A stretch of DNA of 63,776 nucleotides, the filler included. It is 7 parts of 7 records of this genome, joined end to end, with 100 filler letters (N's around TTAATTAATTAA, not from the genome) between each part and the next. Parts side by side here need not be neighbours in the genome. Positions count along the whole stretch, not along the records: positions 18,017 to 33,050 come from SRR31156797_70393; 6 more parts are not named here. One strand, written 5' to 3'. A model generated the notes under the pieces. The model was not told where the DNA came from. It saw nothing but the letters and a program-made list of their open reading frames with translations, and made no database searches. The position numbers and the translations under genes were made by a program. This document shows, piece after piece, positions 3,672 through 47,332 of this stretch. Within the stretch, counting starts at the first letter, position 1. Each line of letters starts with the position of its first letter.

Positions 3672-3896
3672 ATGAGAAGTGTTCGTATCAATATCAGCCT
3701 TCCCAAAGACGTCTTTTCCGCGCTTTCCGAAGAAGTGGAATCCAGGAAAAGGAGCCGTTTTATCACGGAGGCCGTCAAAGCCTTTATCAAAGAGAAAAAA
3801 GCGCAAAGGCTTGCAGCGGAATACCGGGAGGCTGCCGCTGAAATCCGGCGGGTTAACCAGGAACTGGAAGGGACCGTCAACGATGGCCTCCATTAG
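3672..3896 (+). CDS. RHH (CopG/NdoAI-like) antitoxin
   Basis: RINISLPKDV-RSRFITEAV RHH and LAAEYREAAAE acidic tail. Overlaps the toxin start. Confidence 0.85.
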   Translation: MRSVRINISLPKDVFSALSEEVESRKRSRFITEAVKAFIKEKKAQRLAAEYREAAAEIRRVNQELEGTVNDGLH

Positions 3897-4227
3897 ACGC
3901 AGTGAAATCTTTCTGGTGAATTTTGATCCGACGGTCGGTGCTGAGGCCAAAAAAACGCGGCCCGCACTGGTGGTTTCAAATGACGTGAATAACGAGCACT
4001 CTCCCATCGTCTCCATTTCCCCCATAACTTCAAATGTAAAACGCGTCTATTCTTTTGAAGTGGATATCACTGCAGGCATCGGAGGCCTGCGAACCCGTTC
4101 CAAGGTGATGGTCAATCAGACCCGAGCCGTAGATAAAATCCGTCTTATCAAAAGGTTCGGGAACCTCCCTAAAGAGATCATGGAACGGATCGACCAGGCC
4201 CTGAAGCTGCATTATGGGCTTGAATGA
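3883..4227 (+). CDS. mazF: PemK/MazF-family endoribonuclease toxin
   Basis: RRSEIFLVNFDPTVGAEAKKTRPALVVSND, PITS and QTRAVDKIRL motifs. Confidence 0.93.
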   Translation: MASIRRSEIFLVNFDPTVGAEAKKTRPALVVSNDVNNEHSPIVSISPITSNVKRVYSFEVDITAGIGGLRTRSKVMVNQTRAVDKIRLIKRFGNLPKEIMERIDQALKLHYGLE

Positions 4228-6292: not shown

Positions 6293-6392
6293 NNNNNNNN
6301 NNNNNNNNNNNNNNNNNNNNNNNNNNNNNNNNNNNNTTAATTAATTAANNNNNNNNNNNNNNNNNNNNNNNNNNNNNNNNNNNNNNNNNNNN
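6293..6392. other. artificial contig linker
   Basis: N-run + TTAATTAATTAA (stops in all six frames) + N-run, 100 nt. Confidence 0.98.
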
Positions 6393-6884
6393 GATGGCCA
6401 TCTGCTTACCGGGCATGGCGTCCAGGGCGAAGCGGGCGGCCACCTCGGACACACGGGTGGAACCCTTGGTGATGACCATAAACTGCACGGCCACGAGGAT
6501 GATGAAGATGATCAGGCCGACTACGATTCCCTCCTGCCCCGTCGATCCCACGACGAAGGTGGCGAAGGCCTTGACGATCTTTCCGTCGAAGAGGGAGCCC
6601 TTGGTCAGGATCAGTCTGGTGGAGGAGACGTTCAGGGCCAGGGAGAAGACCGTAGAGATCAGCAGCATGGTGGGAAAGACGGAGAACTCCAGGGGATCCT
6701 TGTTGTACATGACGATGAGGATGATCATCAGACTGAGAAGGATGTTCATGATCATCAGGAAGTCCAGAAGGAAGGTGGGCAGCGGGATGATCAGCATGAT
6801 CACCACCGACAGCACGCCGACGGCCACAAGCAAGTCGCTGTTTCCCGATGAGAGCAATCGTTTTATATTATCCTGCCAGGCCAT
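6393..6884 (-). CDS. flhA: flagellar export protein FlhA (N-terminal part)
   Basis: IIPLPTFLLD, FSVFPTMLL and ITKGSTRVSEVAARFALDAMPGKQMAI motifs. Confidence 0.97.
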
Positions 6885-12066: not shown

Positions 12067-12398
12067 GCGGCGATCGCATCCAGCTTCTGATCTAACCGCC
12101 GCGCACCTCGTTGATGATGACATTCCGAATGCGCGGAAAGGCGGAAATCTGGGGGTTTTTAATCAGGGAACTGCTGGTTAGAGCAGTGTTTCCGTCAACG
12201 AGTCCCCACACTGTCCCCCACACCGGATTCTTTTTGCAAGTGGGCCCCGGCCACCGTCAAAGTTATGTAGCGCTAATCCGTCACGAGCATCTGCGGTTTC
12301 CGACGAAAATTGAGTTCCAATCCCACTTTCCGCTACGCCGCCACAATCGCTTGACGACCGCACTAAGCAACCAAGGACCGATAGTCAATGTGTTGTCG

Positions 12399-12794
12399 GG
12401 GACGCGGCAGTTCGATGTCGTCATGGCGTGGTCGGTCGATAGATTGGGGCGCGGCCTTCAAGACCTTGTCACCTTCCTTGGGGAACTTCATGCCGTCAGT
12501 GTCGACCTCTTCATCCATCAGCAGGACGTCGACACGACGACACCGGCTGGGAAAGCGATGTTCCAGATGATGGGCGTCTTTGCGCAATTCGAACGGGCGA
12601 TGATCCAGGAGCGTGTGAAGGCCGGTTTGAAAAAAGCAAAAGCCGCCGGTGTCAAACTTGGTCGCCCCGCCGTTAAGGCCGAAACCAGACTGGCGGTACT
12701 TACCCTTGCCGAATCCGGGGAGTCGATCCGCTCAATCGCCGCCGAGATAAGGTTGGGCGTCGGCACTGTCCATCGGATAGTGAAGGCGGCTTAA
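12399..12794 (+). pseudogene. N-terminally truncated serine recombinase (resolvase/invertase)
   Basis: FDVVMAWSVDRLGR, FAQFERAMIQERVKAG, GRP and HTH motifs are present. The N-terminal YxRVS catalytic-serine motif is absent upstream. Confidence 0.8.
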
Positions 12795-23652: not shown

Positions 23653-24852
23653 ATGTCTGCCACCTTTCGGTTCAATCGTATGGAATTCGCCGGATCCCTC
23701 GGCGACCTGGGAACAATCCTTCCTCTGGCCGTCGGCATGATCATGATCAACGGTATGCACCCCACCGGTGTTTTCCTCGGATTCGGACTTTTTTATATTG
23801 TCTCAGGGTTGTATTTCCGGGTCACCTGCCCTGCCGAACCGATGAAAGTCATCAGTTCCTATGCCTTGGCAACAGGAATATCTGTGGGCCAGATTCAAGC
23901 GTCGTGCCTATGGATTTTTTTGTTCCTGCTCATTCTCGGTTCAAGCGGCTTGATAACATCCATAGGAAAAATCATCCGTAAACCAGTGGTCAGGGGAGTA
24001 CAACTGGCAACCGGCCTTATGCTGGTCATGCAGGGTGTAAAACTGATGGCAGGCACGTCACCAATGCAGCTTATCCACCAAATGGCGGAACCAAACATGA
24101 CCGTACAGGCAATTGGACCGGTTCAATTGAGCTGGCTCATTGGCGGACTATTGGGACTGCTCGCACTTCTGCTCCTCGACAACAAACATCTGCCAGCTGC
24201 AATCATAGTAGTGGGGACTGGAATCGGAACTGGCCTGCTCTTTTCAGTGCCGGGTAACCTTGACCAAATCCAACCTGGTTTCTTTCTGCCCGACTTTTTG
24301 CCCTACGGTCTCCCAACCTTGGACGAGTTCACCATTGCGCTCATTGTACTGGTGCTCCCACAGCTACCGATGACAGTAGGCAATGCTGTTATTAGTAATG
24401 CCGATCTTGCTGGCCAATATTTTCCAGAAACCGGCAAACGTGTAACCTATCGGGGGCTTTGTTTAAGTATGGCCTTTGCTAATATCGGGAGCTTTTTAAT
24501 CGGTGGCATCCCCATGTGTCATGGTGCAGGGGGCCTTGCCTCACGATACAGGTTCGGAGCGCGAACAGCAGGATCAAACCTCATCATTGGAGGGTTATTC
24601 CTGGGACTAGTCTTTTTACTTGGACCCAATATAATTGGCATCATCAACCTAATCCCTTTTTCCGCCTTAGGCGTGCTGTTGATCTTTGCCGGTTTACAAC
24701 TGGCACTGACCCTCTTGGACCTTGAGTCCAGAAAAGAAATGGTTGTTCCGATCATGATCGTCGGCATTACCCTGGCGTCCAATCTGGCTGCAGGGTTTAT
24801 AGTCGGCATCCTCTTTGATACGTTGCTCCGCTGGGACAAAATCAATATCTAA
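23653..24852 (+). CDS. MOT1-like molybdate/sulfate transporter
   Basis: EFAGSLGDLGT, EPMK, PQLPMTVGNA and PMCHGAGGL-YRFGART motifs. GAGGAG RBS before ATG 23653. Confidence 0.9.
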   Translation: MSATFRFNRMEFAGSLGDLGTILPLAVGMIMINGMHPTGVFLGFGLFYIVSGLYFRVTCPAEPMKVISSYALATGISVGQIQASCLWIFLFLLILGSSGLITSIGKIIRKPVVRGVQLATGLMLVMQGVKLMAGTSPMQLIHQMAEPNMTVQAIGPVQLSWLIGGLLGLLALLLLDNKHLPAAIIVVGTGIGTGLLFSVPGNLDQIQPGFFLPDFLPYGLPTLDEFTIALIVLVLPQLPMTVGNAVISNADLAGQYFPETGKRVTYRGLCLSMAFANIGSFLIGGIPMCHGAGGLASRYRFGARTAGSNLIIGGLFLGLVFLLGPNIIGIINLIPFSALGVLLIFAGLQLALTLLDLESRKEMVVPIMIVGITLASNLAAGFIVGILFDTLLRWDKINI

Positions 24853-25238
24853 GCGGACGGTATCTGTTTAGGAGCTAAACATGAAATACAGTAGCTTAAA
24901 TTTGAGCTGACTGGTTGACAAAACAGGTTTCAAATTAACTCGACAACTACGTTCTGGGAGTCCTCCCTCTGAAAAACCATGAAGTATAATGACTCTCGGC
25001 CAAGCTGATTTGTTACGTATAACAGGAGAATTATTCGCCGGATAATACTGGCAATTATCAGATATTGCCAACATCGACCTATTACCAGGATGAGCATGAT
25101 ACTGCTGTTATACCTTTCTTGTGTCGAGAACATTCCTCCTGTACAACCTTACTAAGGTCGTATTATACACTTTTCATATAATTATTTGCACTTACCAACT
25201 TCGTCGCTACCACGATTATATTTACAACCAAAAAGCAG

Positions 25239-25742
25239 ATGATTAGCTACCTTTTAAGTAAAATTTCCAGAAACACTATCTATACTCAATTTACTTCTAA
25301 ACTTATTCAGCTACGGCTTGTTGAAAAAAAGGAAGTTCTGAGCGATGAACCTATCATTGCCATCAAAAAGAAAGGAAACAAAAGCATAGTGGCCGCTGTC
25401 GAAGAAGCATCAAAATCAGAACATAATAAAGATCCTGCAAATATAAAATTACATAATGGCTTTAAGCACCCTTGAACATTTGTAAATGATTTTGAAATTG
25501 CAGAAGCAACACTACGTTATTTTGTATGCAAATTAGTTCAAAAAAAAATGTTTGTTACACCGCTGGTAGTATTTCATCCAACAGAAAACATTGAAGGCGG
25601 TGTAACACAAATTGAGCGTAGAGGCCTGATGGAGATAGGTGCATCGATTGGTGCAAGAAAATCTTATATTTGGACAGGTCGAACTCTTACAGACAAAGAA
25701 CTGTTAAGTGAAACATTTCTAAAACAAACTGAAAATGAATAA
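25239..25742 (+). pseudogene. YjaA/MreB-like small actin-fold protein broken by one in-frame TGA (25473-25475)
   Basis: ORFs 25239-25475 and 25548-25742 share a frame: NGFKHP*TFVNDFEIAEATLRYF...HPTENIEGGVTQIERRGL. Confidence 0.75.
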
Positions 25743-25820
25743 CATAACAGATCATTACATCATCGATCCACTGCGTTTCGCTGGACTCGAGGAAGTTCAT
25801 CGGTTGACTAAACGTTTGGA
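25742..25820 (+). repeat. attC-like site 1 (degenerate)
   Basis: ACATAAC at the stop codon, internal CATCGATCCACTGCGTTTCGCTGGACTCG, ending AAAC-GTTTGGA (25814-25820). Confidence 0.6.
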
Positions 25821-25852
25821 TTAAGTTTTTATCATTCAATGGAGCTTAATAA

Positions 25853-26314
25853 ATGAATAACCCTAAACGAATACTTGAATCAGCTGGTATTATTTGCTTT
25901 GCACTAGCTCTGTGCCAAATAATTATAGGGTTTTCACCGTCTTGGAGTCTATATTTTGGTGCCCCAGAATCCCTTGTCCAAAACACGTTTTTATTAATTT
26001 TTGTGAGCTTTTTGGTTGCAGGTTTACTCACTTTATTTGCCCTTTATGCTTTTTCGGGGGCGGGTCGTATCCGGAAACTACCCTTCTTGAAACAAACTTT
26101 GATTGCAATAAGTGTAATTTTTATTCTTCGAGGTCTTTTAATTGTACCAAATATTCTTGTTATCATGGGTCAAATTGAAACATCCATACACGTTCCACCC
26201 CGCTTTGTCTTTTTCTCAATAACCTCGTTGTTAATTGGTGTAATCTTCATCTCCGGCCTTATTGGGAACTGGATTCTTTTTTCGACCGCAAACAAACAAC
26301 CTATTCAACAATAG
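25853..26314 (+). CDS. hypothetical 4-TM membrane protein (cassette 2)
   Basis: GGAG RBS and four hydrophobic segments. LYAFSGAG-IRKLP-LRG motif. Confidence 0.85.
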   Translation: MNNPKRILESAGIICFALALCQIIIGFSPSWSLYFGAPESLVQNTFLLIFVSFLVAGLLTLFALYAFSGAGRIRKLPFLKQTLIAISVIFILRGLLIVPNILVIMGQIETSIHVPPRFVFFSITSLLIGVIFISGLIGNWILFSTANKQPIQQ

Positions 26315-26326
26315 ACCAATAACGCC

Positions 26327-26437
26327 ACACAACTGGTCGTTTAAGAGGGACGGCAAAAGGTTCCTGCTCTTGTCAAAATCAAAGCTGAAAACAATGTGGG
26401 GGTAGATCTTTTGCCGCCCCTTAACTCAACGCTCTTG
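26327..26437 (+). repeat. attC site 2 (core GTT appears mutated to GCT)
   Basis: ACACAAC, left arm GTTTAAGAGGGACGGCAAAAG (26339-26359), right arm CTTTTGCCGCCCCTTAAC (26408-26425) pairing with unpaired extra bases, then TCAAC-GCT. Confidence 0.78.
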
Positions 26438-26498
26438 CCGACCACGTCGGCAAAAATCGCGTTTGTGCAATAGAGCAATAATATAACAGGAAATAATT

Positions 26499-27161
26499 AT
26501 GAACGAATTTGATATCTTTGTCAGTGTTGGAGGTACATCAACAGACACGCAAGAAGAATTTGTTCGTGCTGTTGAAGATCGACTGAGAAGCGAAGGACTT
26601 ATCCCTCATACAGTTGGCAGAAATACCTTTAGTGCAGATGCCCCTCTAGTAGCGGTTACTGAGCTTATGAAAAAGTGTTCTGGAACTGTCGTTATAGCTC
26701 TTGAGAGAATGTATTTTGAACAAGGGATAGATAAAAGGGGAGGAGATAATGAAAAACAGCTATCTCAGATAAAATTACCAACACCATGGAACCAAATAGA
26801 GGCTACAATGGCCTATGCTTATAAACACCCTCTAATGATAATAGTGGAGGAGGGAATCAAGAGTGAAGGTTTGCTGGAACCTGGCTATGATTGGTATGTT
26901 CAAAATGTAAAAGCAGAAATGGCATCACTTAATTCGTTAGAGTTTAACGGGGTTCTTTCAAGTTGGAAGTCAAAGGTTACAGAGTCGCACACCAATAAAA
27001 AAAATACAGCTAAAAACAAAAATGAAATAGACCCAACAGAGTTAACAATAGGCCAATTGGTGAGTGGACTAAAGCCTGCACAACTGTGGAGCTTTATCGT
27101 TTTTGGTGCTGGGCTTATAGGCGGTGCATTTGCGTTAGGTGCCAAACTAATTGGTAGCTAA
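26499..27161 (+). CDS. TIR/nucleoside-deoxyribosyltransferase-like domain + C-terminal TM helix (cassette 3)
   Basis: DIFVS beta-A, CSGTVVIA beta-C, TPWNQIE(101)A and PLMII. Hydrophobic tail LWSFIVFGAGLIGGAFALG. The CDS is solid; the fold is inferred. Confidence 0.7.
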   Translation: MNEFDIFVSVGGTSTDTQEEFVRAVEDRLRSEGLIPHTVGRNTFSADAPLVAVTELMKKCSGTVVIALERMYFEQGIDKRGGDNEKQLSQIKLPTPWNQIEATMAYAYKHPLMIIVEEGIKSEGLLEPGYDWYVQNVKAEMASLNSLEFNGVLSSWKSKVTESHTNKKNTAKNKNEIDPTELTIGQLVSGLKPAQLWSFIVFGAGLIGGAFALGAKLIGS

Positions 27162-27170
27162 ATATTTATC

Positions 27171-27225
27171 GCATAACATATCATAACACCCTCGCTGAAG
27201 CTCGCTGGTGAACTTATCGTTCCAG
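27171..27225 (+). repeat. attC-like site 3 (short, degenerate)
   Basis: GCATAAC 9 nt after the stop, CACC...GGTG stem, ending TATC-GTTCCAG. Confidence 0.5.
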
Positions 27226-27292
27226 GCGACTCCGTCGCCATGAATCGCGGCACTGACCAGACACCGTAATTAACTGTCAAAGAGAACCCGCA

Positions 27293-27871
27293 ATGAAACA
27301 GTATCTCGAAAATTCAGAATTCATCAATTGGGATAACCCTGAAGTTCTGGATGTAGCTCGTCGCCTAAAGGGCGACATGGGAACAGACGCGGAAATTTCC
27401 AAGGCATGTTTTGAATATGTTCGAGATTCAATCAAGCACAGCTGGGACTTTCAAATAGATATAATCACATGTAAAGCCTCAGATGTACTAAAGTTCAAAA
27501 CGGGCTACTGCTACTCTCAAAGTCATCTCTTGGCCGCACTATTGAGGGCAAATGGAATTGCAGCAGGGCTGTGCTATCAGCGTCTATCCCTTACTGGTGA
27601 TGGTGCTCCATATTGCTTACATGGCTTGAACGCTGTTTATTTGAAAAATTTCGGTTGGTATAGAATTGATCCAAGAGGCAATAAAGAGGGCGTTGAAGCA
27701 AAATTTACCCCACCAATAGAGCAGTTGGCATTTGGCACAAAAGGCCGTCTTGAAGCAGATATTCAAGGTATATGGCCAGAGCCATTACCGGTTATTGTGA
27801 AAACTCTACAAAATTACAATACCTGCATGGCTGTTTATGAGAACTTACCAGACATAGAAGTCTACAGTTAA
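27293..27871 (+). CDS. transglutaminase-like (Cys-His-Asp) family protein (cassette 4)
   Basis: GYCYSQSHLLAALLRANGI, HGLNAV and WYRIDPRG motifs. Confidence 0.9.
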   Translation: MKQYLENSEFINWDNPEVLDVARRLKGDMGTDAEISKACFEYVRDSIKHSWDFQIDIITCKASDVLKFKTGYCYSQSHLLAALLRANGIAAGLCYQRLSLTGDGAPYCLHGLNAVYLKNFGWYRIDPRGNKEGVEAKFTPPIEQLAFGTKGRLEADIQGIWPEPLPVIVKTLQNYNTCMAVYENLPDIEVYS

Positions 27872-27935
27872 CAAACATTTGCACCGGAAAAACGAACAGC
27901 GACGCTTCAGATGTGCTACAAAGCACGGGTTACTA
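27866..27935 (+). repeat. attC-like site 4 (left half only recognisable)
   Basis: AGTTAAC overlaps the TAA stop, followed by AAACATTTGCACCGGA. No complementary right arm seen. Confidence 0.4.
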
Positions 27936-28085
27936 TTGCCAATTCAAATATCTCATTGATGCATTAATCTGAAACTTTCACGTGCTTCCTGCGTACCTCC
28001 GAGTCAACCATTTTCATGATCGGCTGCAAAGCAAGGCCAAGACTTGCTTATTCGACCTGTCAGATCAAATCTGAGTTACTGCCCA

Positions 28086-28922
28086 TTAAAGGTCTTTAAG
28101 TTTATCCATCTCCTCGGGTCGCATGGCAAAACTGTGGACCTGCTCAGGAAAGGTGCCGTTTTCCACCTCATTCTTATACTGACCAATGGCTTCTATTATT
28201 GATTCTCGCATCTGGGTATACTGCTTTACAAATTTCGGAGTGAACCCGTCAAACAGACCGACCATGTCATGGGTGACCAGTACCTGTCCGTCACAGTCCA
28301 CCCCTGCGCCGATACCGATGGTCGGGATAGTAACAGAATCGGTAATTTTCTGCGCGATGGGTGCGGGGATTGCTTCCAGAACCAGGGAAAAGCAACCTGC
28401 ATCCTCCAGTGCCAGGGCATCATCCATTAACTGACGAGCAGCCTCAGCACTTTTTCCCTGCACCTTGAAGCCACCGAGCGAGGTCGCTGTCTGTGGGGTG
28501 AGACCAATATGCCCCATAACAGGAATGCCGCCATTAACAAGGGTTTCCACGGTATCAGACATGATTCGTCCGCCTTCCAGTTTAACCGCGTCAGCCCCTG
28601 CCTCTTTTAAGAAGCGAGTCGCATTTTTCACCGCACCAGGGATAGAACTGTTATAGGAACCAAAAGGCATATCAGCAACAACCAAAGCACGCTCCGTTCC
28701 ACGGACGACCGCACGTGTGTGATGCAGCATCTCCTCCATGGTAACGGAAACTGTATCCGTATGACCAAGCACCACCATGGCCAAGGAATCACCCACCAGA
28801 GCAATATCAATCCCTGCCTGATCTATCATCCTTGCCCAAGGGTAATCATACGCAGTGAGCATGGCTATTTTGGTTCCATCACCTTTACGTGCTTTTATAT
28901 CTGGTATTGTTAACTTTTTCAT
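28086..28922 (-). CDS. panB: 3-methyl-2-oxobutanoate hydroxymethyltransferase
   Basis: MLTAYD, LVGDSL, DMPFGSY, VKLEGG and GHIGLTPQ motifs. Confidence 0.97.
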   Translation of the reverse strand: MKKLTIPDIKARKGDGTKIAMLTAYDYPWARMIDQAGIDIALVGDSLAMVVLGHTDTVSVTMEEMLHHTRAVVRGTERALVVADMPFGSYNSSIPGAVKNATRFLKEAGADAVKLEGGRIMSDTVETLVNGGIPVMGHIGLTPQTATSLGGFKVQGKSAEAARQLMDDALALEDAGCFSLVLEAIPAPIAQKITDSVTIPTIGIGAGVDCDGQVLVTHDMVGLFDGFTPKFVKQYTQMRESIIEAIGQYKNEVENGTFPEQVHSFAMRPEEMDKLKDL

Positions 28923-45253: not shown

Positions 45254-46696
45254 ATGGATATTAAAAGCAGCCTCAAACCCATTATCGTAACGGCCCTGGT
45301 CACGGCCTTTGTCACGGCGGGAGCGGGTTTCACCTGGTTCCGGCTCATGGGATATCATGCCCCCCATATCATCGACTTACCGGCTTCCGGCGGCATGGGG
45401 GCGGGGGAAACGAAACAGCTCTACACCTGCGGCATGCATCCCTGGATCGTCACGGAGGAGCCGGGTTTGTGTCCCATCTGCAACATGGAGCTGCCCCCCA
45501 AGCGGGATGCTGATCAAGTTCCTTCAGGGGAGGCCGGGGAGCGGACCATCGTCTACTGGCGGGCTCCCATGGATCCCACCGAGATCTACGAGGCCCCCGG
45601 CAAAAGCAAAATGGGCATGGATCTTGTGCCTGTGTACGAGGACGAACTGGTGGGGGGGGTGGAGATCAGGGTGGATCCGGTGACCGTCCAGAACATGGGC
45701 ATTCGCACCATCCGGGTCGAGGAAACGCCCCTGGTGCACACCATCCGCACCTACGGCCATATCACCTATGACGAGACCTCCCTGGTCAAGGTGAGCCCCA
45801 AGGTGGCCGGCTGGTACGATAAACTCCATGTGGACTTTACCGGCGCCGTGGTGGAAAAGGGCCAGCCCCTTTACGATATTTATTCGCCGGATCTCCTGGC
45901 CGCCCAGGAGGAATACCTGTCCGCCCTGGGCAGTCCGTCCCAAAGCCTCCTGGAATCGGCAAGAAGCAGACTCTCCTTTTTTGACCTTGCGGAAACGGAG
46001 ATCCTGGCCATCAAGACAGCCGGACGGGTGAAACGAACCCTGACCATCCGCTCCCCGGCGGACGGGGTGGTGATCGAAAAGAATGCGGTGGAGGGGGGAT
46101 TTGTCAAGGCCGGCACCACGGCCTACACCATTGTCAACCTGTCCAGGGTGTGGGTGGAGGCCCATATCTACGAGTATGAAATGGAGATGATCGAAAAGGG
46201 GCTGGATGCCGAAATGACCCTTCCCTATCATCCGGGAAAGGTGTGCAAAGGCAAGGTCACCTTTATCTATCCCTACATGGAGCGGGGCACCCGGGACCTG
46301 GTGATCCTCCTTGAGTTCGAAAACCCGGATCTCTTCCTGAAGCCGGACATGTTTGCCGAGGTGTTCATCCGGACCAAGGGCAAGGGGCCGGGCCTCACCA
46401 TCCCCTCTGAATCGGTGATCCGGTCGGGCACCCGCAATATTGTTTTCGTGGCAAAGGGAAATGGCCGGTTCGTCCCCCGGGAGGCCACCCTGGGCATTCC
46501 CGTTGACGGGGGCCGGGTCCATGTGATTACAGGTCTTGCCCCGGGGGAAACCGTTGTCACTTCGGGGCAGTTTCTTCTGGATTCCGAGTCCCGGCTCAAG
46601 GAGGCCGTGCGCAAGATGATGGAACCTGCCCCGCCGTCTCCGGAAGAGGAAGAGGCCGAAGATGATTTTTTCGGAGATATGGAGAATGAATCATGA
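45254..46696 (+). CDS. cusB: CusB-type RND periplasmic adaptor with heavy-metal-binding domains
   Basis: [36 protein letters not shown] and [10 protein letters not shown] motifs. Confidence 0.9.
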
Positions 46697-47232
46697 TCCA
46701 TGGCATTATCCGCTGGTCCGTAAACAACCGGTTCATGGTGATCCTCGCCACCCTTTTCGTTATCGCGGGGGGGATCACGGCCATGGTGAACATGCCGGTG
46801 GACGCCATTCCCGACCTTTCCGACGTTCAGGTGATCCTCTACACGGAGTATGCGGGGCAGGCTCCCCAGGTGGTGGAGGATCAGGTCACCTATCCCTTGA
46901 CAACGGCCATGCTCAGCGTGCCCTTTGCCAAGGTGGTGCGGGGATACTCCTTCTTCGGAATCTCCTTTGTCTACATCATCTTCGAGGACGGCACCGATCT
47001 CTACTGGGCCCGGTCCAGGGTGCTGGAATACCTGAACTTCGTTGCCGGACGGCTGCCTGCCGGGGTTACCCCGAGCCTGGGGCCCGATGCCACCGGGGTG
47101 GGCTGGGTGTATGAGTACGTGCTCAAGGACACCACCGGGCAATACGACCTTGCCCAGCTCAGGAGCCTACAGGACTGGTATTTGCGGTATGAACTCACCG
47201 CCGTGCCCGGGGTGTCCGAGGTGGCCGGCATC
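46693..47232 (+). CDS. cusA: CusA-type heavy-metal RND permease (3' truncated)
   Basis: [37 protein letters not shown] and GPDATGVGW motifs. Confidence 0.95.
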
Positions 47233-47332
47233 NNNNNNNNNNNNNNNNNNNNNNNNNNNNNNNNNNNNNNNNNNNNTTAATTAATTAANNNNNNNNNNNN
47301 NNNNNNNNNNNNNNNNNNNNNNNNNNNNNNNN
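47233..47332. other. artificial contig linker
   Basis: N-run + TTAATTAATTAA + N-run. Confidence 0.98.

Follow-up and report, generated by a model that had tools for sequence, protein, structure and literature searches.

A widespread tail-anchored protein family with a predicted TIR-like N-glycosidase domain

What does a protein of 220 residues do when it carries the marks of a TIR-like enzyme at its N-terminal end and a single hydrophobic helix at the other, and when none of the usual family collections gives it a name? The question is raised by an open reading frame (ORF) at 26499..27161 (+) in a stretch of DNA of 63,776 nucleotides (nt), filler included, which joins seven records of one genome and is called the window here. 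An earlier note, made from the letters alone, had taken it for a cassette-borne domain of the TIR or nucleoside deoxyribosyltransferase (NDT) kind with a C-terminal membrane anchor, a candidate single-gene anti-phage system. The analysis described here leads to a protein that may be a stand-alone, tail-anchored NADase or nucleotide N-glycosidase, acting as a single-gene module of the abortive-infection type. Taken whole, this is a tentative reading to which we would give somewhat less than an even chance; its fold and enzyme-class part is, taken separately, very probable. The argument leans on the following parts of the gene and its product:

26499..27161, stop codon included (+): coding sequence of the 220-residue tail-anchored TIR-like protein (ORF list, homologues and AlphaFold2 model)
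26488..26491 (+): AGGA, Shine-Dalgarno-like, 7 nt before the ATG (read from the sequence)
26499..26993 (+): residues 1-165, predicted catalytic domain of TIR/NDT fold (secondary structure of the model; VIA-align Z over residues ~1-166)
26700..26777 (+): residues 68-93, family-specific beta-hairpin between betaC and alphaC (gap in the TIR_2 and DUF4062 profiles; strands 71-78 and 86-93)
26781..26804 (+): residues 95-102, T-P-W-N-Q-I-E-A, a W-x-x-x-E motif with the putative catalytic Glu101, codon 26799-26801 (conservation and profile alignment)
26937..27068 (+): residues 147-190, long alphaE or stalk helix and Lys/Asn-rich linker (helix 147-174 in the model; sequence)
27075..27155 (+): residues 193-219, C-terminal glycine-rich transmembrane (TM) helix, the predicted tail anchor (helix in the model; hydropathy across relatives)

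The gene, its family and the conserved glutamate

The ORF opens with an ATG, at the same Met at which its homologues begin, and it is a real gene, far beyond chance, since a word-indexed search of 5.8 billion clusters returned 1145 homologous clusters (90% identity) at E<=1e-3, the best homologue being 94% identical (E 4e-130) and dozens of others 62-78% identical over the full length. An exhaustive HMMER search of 1.84 billion representatives at 50% identity gave 895 matches at E<=1e-3, of which 491 reach E<=1e-10 and 136 reach E<=1e-30. All the stretches that the earlier note had quoted are found in the translation, namely DIFVS (within EFDIFVSVGG), KKCSGTVVIALE, TPWNQIE, whose Glu is residue 101 and is followed by ATMAY, the Lys/Asn-rich stretch HTNKKNTAKNKNE and the terminal hydrophobic, glycine-rich helix LWSFIVFGAGLIGGAFALGAKLIGS.

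The source names shown for the homologues are all "hypothetical protein". The query on its own matches no Pfam family even at E<=10, so that the gathering thresholds of TIR_2 (PF13676) and of DUF4062, now NIR (PF13271), are both out of its reach; it gave noise only in NCBIfam, no family at E<=1 in PADLOC-DB 2.0, where it was searched together with its two larger neighbours, and no significant match among PDB sequences, either as a single protein or as a profile. With PADLOC returning no family, the earlier statement that no named system can be assigned to this architecture stands. When 67 family members were scanned singly against Pfam, the most frequent weak match was to DUF4062, in five of them (best E 0.0066), followed by TIR_2 in two (best E 0.025).

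How far does the family reach? A scan seeded with motifs, in which each of 185,579 species was represented by a single genome, yielded 222 confirmed loci, 80 of which were fetched with their surroundings. This set spans Beta-, Gamma- and Alphaproteobacteria, Nitrospira, Acidobacteriota, Bacteroidota, Planctomycetota, Verrucomicrobiota and Cyanobacteria, and a homologue is also carried by one archaeal metagenome-assembled genome (MAG), of Methanothrix. The distribution is patchy and crosses at least eight phyla, at identities of 53-75%. Two IMG/VR contigs hold a homologue as well, adjoining a CI-like repressor and an exonuclease in one case and O-like replication, RuvC and methyltransferase genes in the other, a placement that would fit a prophage accessory gene.

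Conservation was counted over the 123 representatives, out of 150 listed, that cover the domain. Ser9 is kept in all 123, and W97, E101 and P111 in 122 each; R70, P49 and W156 follow with 121, G11 with 120, W132 with 118, Q18 and T95 with 117, and E69 and N98 with 109, the latter being His in 12 more. The residue after E101 is Ala in 85 of the 123, and Tyr is never the majority there. For placement at the level of profiles, the N-terminal 170 columns of the alignment of 67 diverse family members were compared by hhalign with family alignments drawn from sampled genomes, six loci of two genomes being left out. DUF4062 (17 sequences) was matched with a probability of 88.8% (E 2.5e-6, 112 columns) and TIR_2 (23 sequences) with 87.3% (E 3.8e-6, 90 columns), followed at a distance by PF10137 (7 sequences; 33.9%, E 4.3e-4, 59 columns) and the NDT family PF05014, represented by 4 sequences only (2.2%, E 0.021, 118 columns). 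As controls, the same comparison gave 95.4% for DUF4062 with TIR_2, 96.2% for TIR_2 with PF10137 and 86.8% for DUF4062 with PF10137, and 72.0% and 66.9% for DUF4062 and TIR_2, respectively, with NDT. Because the values of 87-89% stand beside such controls, the tie of the family to TIR_2 and DUF4062 appears about as strong as that of these two to each other. In these alignments E101 falls on the second Glu of the DUF4062 motif T-E-x-E-Y and on the Glu of the TIR_2 motif S-x-W-x-x-x-E-x-x-A, and the hairpin at about residues 68-93 is an insertion relative to both profiles. The Glu singled out by the earlier note as the catalytic one is thus conserved in 122 of 123 representatives and aligned with the catalytic Glu of both families.

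A search of the ESM Atlas returned the family's own unannotated clusters first; the nearest named ones were those of PF10137, the Cap12/PycTIR family (0.82 and 0.79), and of TIR_2/TIR (0.79), which is a lead only. Membership in the Cap12/PycTIR family was considered and rejected: 59 N-terminal columns align, at the hhalign probability of only 33.9% already given, no cyclase or CD-NTase gene lies nearby in the window or among the first neighbours at 60 homologue loci, and no cyclic-nucleotide-sensing domain is evident in the protein.

Predicted fold, predicted dimer and known relatives

An AlphaFold2 model built with the same alignment of 67 members has a mean pLDDT (predicted local distance difference test) of 95.4 and a pTM (predicted template modelling score) of 0.81. 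It lays the protein out as a beta-alpha domain (residues 1 to ~145) with an inserted hairpin, a long helix (147-174), a short helix and a terminal helix (193-219). The predicted domain is a flavodoxin-like five-stranded parallel sheet with beta-alpha repeats, in the order betaA (4-10), alphaA (16-31), betaB (34-37), alphaB (49-59), betaC (62-67), alphaC (96-107), betaD (112-117) and betaE (133-137), and the hairpin between betaC and alphaC carries E69, R70 and the tip K79-R80-G81.

Which known structures does this model resemble? Foldseek against the PDB placed at the top an NDT (2a0k, E 6e-4), BcmB/MilB, the TIR domain of SfSTING, SARM1, DNPH1, ThsB and the SPARTA TIR, all with weak E-values (6e-4 to 3e-3 for NDT, BcmB/MilB, SfSTING and SARM1). 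VIA-align was run against 48,161 representative chains and, in a second run, on Foldseek's top 1000. Human DNPH1 (8rps) came first in the latter set, with Z 13.7 and a root-mean-square deviation (rmsd) of 2.8 over 126 aligned residues, heading some 30 DNPH1 entries at Z ~12-13.7 (rmsd 2.2-2.8 over 116-126 residues). The TIR domain of SfSTING (7un8) reached Z 13.3 (rmsd 2.8, 128 aligned), MilB (4ohr) 13.0, BcmB 11.9, and the NDTs 12.7-11.4 (7o62 at 12.6-12.7, 6evs at 12.3), and many further TIR domains, including those of TRR-2, IL-1RAcPb, MyD88, SARM1 and ThsB, lie at Z 10-12. LOG-like proteins scored 9.2-9.6, lower than both TIR and NDT, and a SLOG/LOG-type assignment was set aside. A TIR/NDT fold of the flavodoxin-like kind, as the earlier note had expected, is therefore what a confident model predicts, and structure alone cannot separate the TIR from the NDT branch.

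Two copies of the protein were also folded together with ESMFold2, in which the family alignment is not used. The runs gave an ipSAE of 0.78-0.80 (median 0.79), and each of the three controls 0.00; the runs agreed in at least 69% of contacts, at a partner pLDDT of at least 77, and the ipSAE mark applied is one that 21 of 30 proteins solved as pairs reach, and none of 23 solved as single chains. The interface so predicted is symmetric and is built from the hairpin (residues 69-93, with 71 against 78 and 73 against 77) and alphaC (95-108, with contacts 100-100 and 103-103), taking in also residues 14-16, 50, 54, 123-125 and 130; the stalk and the TM helix are not among the confident contacts. 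A symmetric homodimer through the family-specific hairpin is thus predicted and, if it forms, it would bring the two Glu101 sites near the dyad, with the conserved E69, R70, K/R79 and R80 of the partner close by. NDT and DNPH1 dimers are constitutive and formed through alphaC, which is not known of TIR NADases, and they complete their active sites with residues of the partner.

The nearest relatives by profile have been characterised very recently. Three preprints of 2026 report DUF4062 to be an anti-phage NADase domain. In the first it is a TIR-like enzyme whose catalytic Glu is conserved and which makes up the Swarozyc defence system, its dimeric structure being described as a "flower and stem" that stands on helical stalks (10.64898/2026.05.01.722283); the second renames it NIR and reports that Avs2, Vulcan and Vesta deplete NAD+ in a Glu-dependent manner (10.64898/2026.09.04.749371); and the third reports single-gene "Evangelion" systems with an "E-Y" catalytic region, an acidic-S-Y-T region in which Tyr follows the catalytic Glu (10.64898/2026.06.25.731849). 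For TIR proteins proper, a survey in E. coli is reported to have validated single-protein systems, one of them with a TM segment (PMC11350192). The word "transmembrane" has no occurrence in the main texts of the three DUF4062 reports (supplements not covered), a full-text literature search for "TIR-TM" together with "phage" found no paper, and the searches on DUF4062 and TIR-TM returned no description of the present family.

Set beside DUF4062/NIR, its best profile match, the family has in common the N-terminal strand x-F-[IV]-S and, going by those preprints, an organisation as single-gene systems in which an effector-type N-terminal domain precedes a helical stalk or auxiliary region. It differs from DUF4062 in its recognition, the best E of any member being the 0.0066 given above, in the hairpin of about 25 residues before alphaC, in its W-x-x-x-E motif and in the C-terminal TM anchor, and Ala follows the Glu in the present protein where the described "E-Y" region has Tyr (10.64898/2026.06.25.731849). 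The likeness to TIR_2 and to bacterial TIR domains lies in E101 falling on the conserved TIR Glu, in the Z scores of up to 13.3, and in the existence of single-protein TIR defence systems; the differences are that no Pfam TIR family is matched at threshold, that the hairpin insertion is missing from TIR_2, and that the contact in the predicted dimer runs through alphaC together with the hairpin, as against the AE and BE interfaces described for SARM1-type assemblies.

A third set of relatives, NDT, DNPH1, MilB and BcmB (PF05014), has the highest structural scores and a Glu likewise placed on the helix after the third strand, and its dimers complete their active sites across the subunits. In the obligate pair predicted for the present protein, the Glu helix is at the interface and hairpin residues of one subunit lie by the site of the other. 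Could the protein then be a membrane-tethered nucleotide N-glycosidase of this type, whose substrate is a (deoxy)nucleoside monophosphate, such as a modified deoxynucleoside monophosphate or cytidine monophosphate, and not NAD+? The structural matches and the predicted mode of dimerisation favour DNPH1, MilB and NDT, which makes this the main alternative; the role could be the sanitation of the nucleotide pool or the destruction of phage-specific modified nucleotides, and candidates for binding a 5'-phosphate are the Gly-rich betaA-alphaA loop (S9-x-G11) and the conserved R70 and K/R79-R80. Nevertheless, the profile signal to PF05014, drawn from 4 sequences, is negligible next to that of TIR_2 and DUF4062, the pairing of D-I-F-V-S with W-x-x-x-E is of the TIR type rather than the D-x-G-T-x-x-E of NDT, the fusions described below are typical of effectors in conflict systems, and the known DNPH1, MilB and NDT enzymes are soluble proteins without hairpin, stalk or TM helix. 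On this balance we hold the alternative to be unlikely, albeit the strongest of those considered.

Membrane anchor, fused domains and genomic surroundings

The layout of the family was followed in the same 150 representatives, of which 108 have a near-complete N-terminal domain by a script rule (the other 42 being fragments), with a Kyte-Doolittle scan. The tail-anchored form, with a hydrophobic helix within 25 residues of the end, accounts for 61 of the 108; in 29 the TM segment is followed by more than 25 further residues, and 18 have no segment above the hydropathy cut-off. The C-terminal TM anchor claimed by the earlier note is hence borne out, a hydrophobic segment being present in at least 90 of the 108. 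In the protein of the window the predicted helix takes up residues 193-219 of 220 and there is no N-terminal signal; within this helix G214 is kept in 98 of the 123 representatives and F/Y211 in 96.

What follows the TM segment in the longer forms, P0212 and P0229 among them, is variable, ranging from 26 to ~210 residues: a VHL-beta domain (P0144), a sandwich like domain III of the delta-endotoxins, Endotoxin_C (P0147), DUF4019 (P0261), and other extensions that are Cys-rich or without family. Because they follow the single TM segment of a protein whose N-terminal domain is of a cytoplasmic type, we infer that these domains are periplasmic, which would give about a quarter of the relatives a receptor-like layout. 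In other members the TM helix is absent and the domain is fused to CHAT (P0125, P0207, P0218 and, by its precomputed Pfam label, P0272, at E<=1e-7; P0152 has a weak CHAT match below the cut-off, E 0.0065) or, in one protein (P0154), to EAD7 and EAD1. A search with residues 1-165 for longer fused forms found 3 proteins only, two with a CHAT label and one (P0271) without Pfam label. CHAT and effector-associated domains (EADs) mark the effector end of NTP-dependent conflict systems, which fits the constant N-terminal domain as the effector enzyme.

Does the gene travel with a partner? All ORFs within 5 kb were clustered at the 80 loci and, apart from one cluster of large proteins, recurrence of neighbours is confined to the picocyanobacterial clade, where 14-19 loci are syntenic. 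The exception, proteins of 560-1140 residues found near the homologue in 14 loci with varying position and strand, is read as generic paralogy because its four identified members are ABC-type or without family (an ABC transporter, an ABC-oligopeptide ATPase, a PADLOC hit of the mad3/ATPase type and one protein without Pfam family). The idea of a conserved partner gene was accordingly rejected for this 5-kb clustering, and none of the 80 loci holds a homologue of the window gene's own four neighbours. That no cyclase or partner gene lies nearby, as the earlier note had stated, is what the window, the first-neighbour scan of 60 loci and the clustering of 80 loci all give.

The first-neighbour scan against Pfam covered 116 proteins, with the picocyanobacterial clade reduced to 3 of its 60 loci. 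No family at E<=1e-5 was assigned to 68 of the 116, some of which may be artefacts of crude gene calls. Neighbours of a mobile, toxin-antitoxin or defence type occur in about 15 loci: VapB, IS200, SNase, HEPN_RES_NTD1, TumE, terminase with D5 primase, MazG, PLDc_2, HNH, ThsB_TIR, GmrSD_N, DUF4365, HigB and a T4 gp19-like tube protein. At one of these loci, in a Sulfitobacter MAG, a ThsB-type TIR gene (L065:4182-4649, PF08937, E 5e-14) is found directly downstream of the homologue, so that two genes of the TIR superfamily lie side by side. Within the picocyanobacteria (loci L022-L068, of Synechococcus/Cyanobium type) the neighbourhood is conserved, which suggests vertical inheritance there, and it includes a protein of ~1000 residues without Pfam family (L033) and, in L022, a family-25 glycosyltransferase and a DUF1348 protein.

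These layouts and neighbourhoods bear on two further ways of reading the protein. It could be a transmembrane signalling protein that makes or degrades a signal such as one like cyclic ADP-ribose, or serves as an adaptor, and thereby relays envelope or periplasmic cues to an effector encoded elsewhere. The receptor-like forms, 29 of the 108, would suit such a role, and the TIRs of Thoeris are described as producers of signals (10.64898/2025.12.03.692087). The studied protein of 220 residues, by contrast, has no ectodomain, no conserved partner or effector appears at the 60 or the 80 loci, and none of the neighbours of the window gene recurs beside a homologue, which leaves this reading improbable. 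It could also be that the glycine-rich TM helix is itself the effector, a membrane-disrupting oligomer, and that the TIR/NDT domain is a nucleotide-binding sensor, as in the TM effectors of CBASS, Pycsar and Thoeris, where nucleotide-sensing TM effectors are known. The conserved glycine and aromatic positions of the helix and weak matches to holin families in two of the 67 members (E 0.12) point that way. Against them are set the single TM helix, the lack of a cyclase or other signal-producing gene nearby, the near-invariant Glu and Trp of a catalytic type, which speak for an enzyme, and the soluble variants, in which the TM helix is exchanged for CHAT or EAD domains, leaving the N-terminal domain as the constant, effector-like part; we consider this reading very unlikely.

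The gene itself sits in an islet of 3.2 kb with a content of guanine and cytosine (GC) of 39.8%, that of the gene being 40.1% and that of the window 51%. The islet is flanked by a gene for a MOT1-type molybdate transporter on one side and by panB, panE and gap on the other, and it holds four more ORFs on the same strand, two of them small:

24853..28085 (no strand assigned): low-GC islet with five same-strand ORFs, including the TIR-like gene (composition, ORFs and flanking families)
25853-26314 (+): 153-residue multi-pass membrane protein (weak DUF3995, E 0.046)
26318..26467 (no strand assigned): structured intergenic element upstream of the gene, with two hairpins (DNA fold z -4.32; inverted repeat)
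27293-27871 (+): 192-residue protein with a transglutaminase core (Pfam E 1.7e-13)

From its low GC relative to the window, the islet DNA, and therefore the gene, was probably acquired horizontally. Was it acquired as an integron cassette? Five intergenic stretches were folded as single-stranded DNA and compared with shuffles, and only 26318-26467 was more stable than its shuffles (z -4.32, none of 200 as stable). This element consists of a 14-bp stem with a 48-nt loop and an 8-bp GC-rich hairpin, that is, two separate hairpins and not the single R''/R'-closed hairpin of an attC site; the window has a single copy of its upstream arm, AAGAGGGACGGCAAAAG. The downstream flank, 27165-27285, does not fold beyond its shuffles (z +0.22, 109 of 200 folding as well). 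A scanner for RYYYAAC...GTTRRRY with complementary ends and a closing hairpin, crude and run without a positive control, turned up nothing at the two flanks of the window gene and, over 78 homologue loci, no site at a distance of up to 260 nt from the homologue. Its matches in the window are one within the coding sequence and an inverted repeat at 25017-25113, the sole intergenic AAC...GTT-closed hairpin in a relaxed scan. Among the window ORFs scanned with Pfam (at least 110 residues, picked by a greedy non-overlap rule) there is no tyrosine recombinase family, a result with which a CALIN or a distant IntI would be compatible, and one serine resolvase (12111-12791). The claim of the earlier note that the gene is cassette-borne and flanked by attC-like sites was therefore given up: a cassette captured through attC sites, for which the low-GC islet of five short same-strand ORFs, the structured element upstream and the arrays of small same-strand genes at some homologue loci (L009, for instance) could be cited, is highly unlikely in view of the unfolded downstream flank, the empty flanks here and at the homologue loci in the crude scan, and the lack of a tyrosine recombinase family among the ORFs scanned.

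Some further observations concern the islet and the rest of the window. The inverted repeat at 25017-25113 lies at the left edge of the islet, with arms of 18 nt that are 83% complementary and 61 nt apart; it may represent a boundary of the islet or the relic of a site of recombination. Rfam gave no match at E<=1 over 24700-28200, which includes the structured element, and consensus scans of the islet for promoters and terminators stayed at the level of shuffles. Elsewhere in the window, a FHIPEP (FlhA-type) ORF at 6348-6884 (-), of 179 residues, and an AcrB-type ORF at 46693-47277 (+), of 195, are N-terminal pieces of proteins that normally have ~650-1000 residues; both adjoin sharp GC steps (~59-61% against 42-52%), and gene breakage, mosaic DNA or joins made in the assembly could account for them. 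A HicB-like antitoxin (234-707, +), a PemK/MazF-type toxin (3679-4224, +) and the serine resolvase (on the + strand) suggest several small accessory insertions.

A possible mechanism and what it would mean

How might such a protein work? We would picture it as tail-anchored in the inner membrane with its N-terminal TIR-like domain in the cytoplasm, two copies pairing through the hairpins and the alphaC helices so that the W97-x-x-x-E101 sites stand beside the dimer axis, near conserved basic residues of the hairpin. An attack of Glu101 on the ribosyl C1' would cleave the N-glycosidic bond of NAD+ or, with lower likelihood, that of a nucleotide; NAD+ would be the favoured substrate, given that profile and motifs point to TIR_2 and DUF4062. 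Stalk and glycine-rich TM helix would hold the enzyme at the membrane, where it might be inactive until a membrane-proximal cue arrives, perhaps phage entry or envelope damage, or possibly a ligand in those relatives that have periplasmic domains. NAD+ depletion would then stop growth, as in a single-gene module of the abortive-infection type. The anti-phage role is a guess by analogy with the TIR and DUF4062 NADases, helped by the CHAT/EAD fusions and by a few prophage or toxin-antitoxin neighbours.

Several findings weigh against this reading of the protein as a tail-anchored NADase or nucleotide N-glycosidase of the abortive-infection type. On the enzyme side, the profile probabilities of 87-89% suggest a relation without settling it, the placement of E101 in a pocket comes from profile alignment and topology, the match to every Pfam, NCBIfam and PADLOC model stays below that model's cut-off, DNPH1, MilB and NDT match the model at least as well as TIR domains do, and the predicted dimer resembles those of NDT and DNPH1 more than SARM1-type AE/BE assemblies. 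On the side of defence, conservation is unusually high along the whole length (~65% identity across phyla), which is atypical for fast-evolving defence sensors; 50,697 phage genomes gave no match to the family and 72,556 plasmids only 4 distant ones (27-32% identity); the picocyanobacterial locus looks vertical, not island-like; and many first neighbours are housekeeping genes (SmpB, GyrB, RF-1, DNA ligase, RelA/SpoT). Enrichment in defence islands, put forward as a check by the earlier note, was not seen in a small control comparison with crude gene calls, in which PADLOC models at E<=1e-8 were matched by 3 of 75 random genes within 2.5 kb of homologues and by 1 of 75 lying more than 5 kb away, at 33 non-cyanobacterial loci. 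With no enrichment of known defence genes nearby and a family so unusually conserved, the abortive-infection-type module at the membrane is the weakest step of the proposed chain.

What, then, is the family? It would be a previously unmodelled branch of the N-glycosidases of the TIR/DUF4062/NDT superfamily, of a kind that is known, even if DUF4062 was characterised only in 2026. An inserted hairpin, the way in which it is predicted to dimerise, a membrane anchor and variants of receptor-like layout set it apart from its known relatives. A bolder reading, which we regard as quite unlikely, would make it a bacterial counterpart in the style of Toll-like receptors with the enzyme kept, that is, a bitopic, constitutively dimeric TIR-like N-glycosidase with its N-terminus inside and its C-terminus outside, coupled to the envelope by the stalk helix and the one glycine-rich TM helix and serving as an envelope sensor for defence or stress. 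About a quarter of the lineages would carry interchangeable periplasmic sensors, beta-sandwich or Cys-rich, and in the minimal tail-anchored form it would be the TM helix that senses a disturbed membrane, as when a phage injects its genome, a holin acts or the membrane depolarises, the dimer being rearranged and cleavage of NAD+ or nucleotides unleashed. If this were true, the protein would read the envelope rather than phage proteins in the cytoplasm.

TIR and DUF4062 domains are NAD+-cleaving immune effectors common to bacteria, plants and animals, and the family described here would add a further widespread branch, of about 900 clusters at 50% identity, that is invisible to Pfam, NCBIfam and PADLOC. 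Should it turn out to have no role in defence, it would be an example of the TIR/NDT fold put to another use in bacteria. If it proves active as a NADase or a nucleotide glycosidase, annotation pipelines would gain a missing family, the architectures of TIR-type effectors would extend to membrane-anchored forms, and a compact single-gene system of 220 residues would be at hand for studying what holds a TIR-like enzyme in check at a membrane and what then sets it off.

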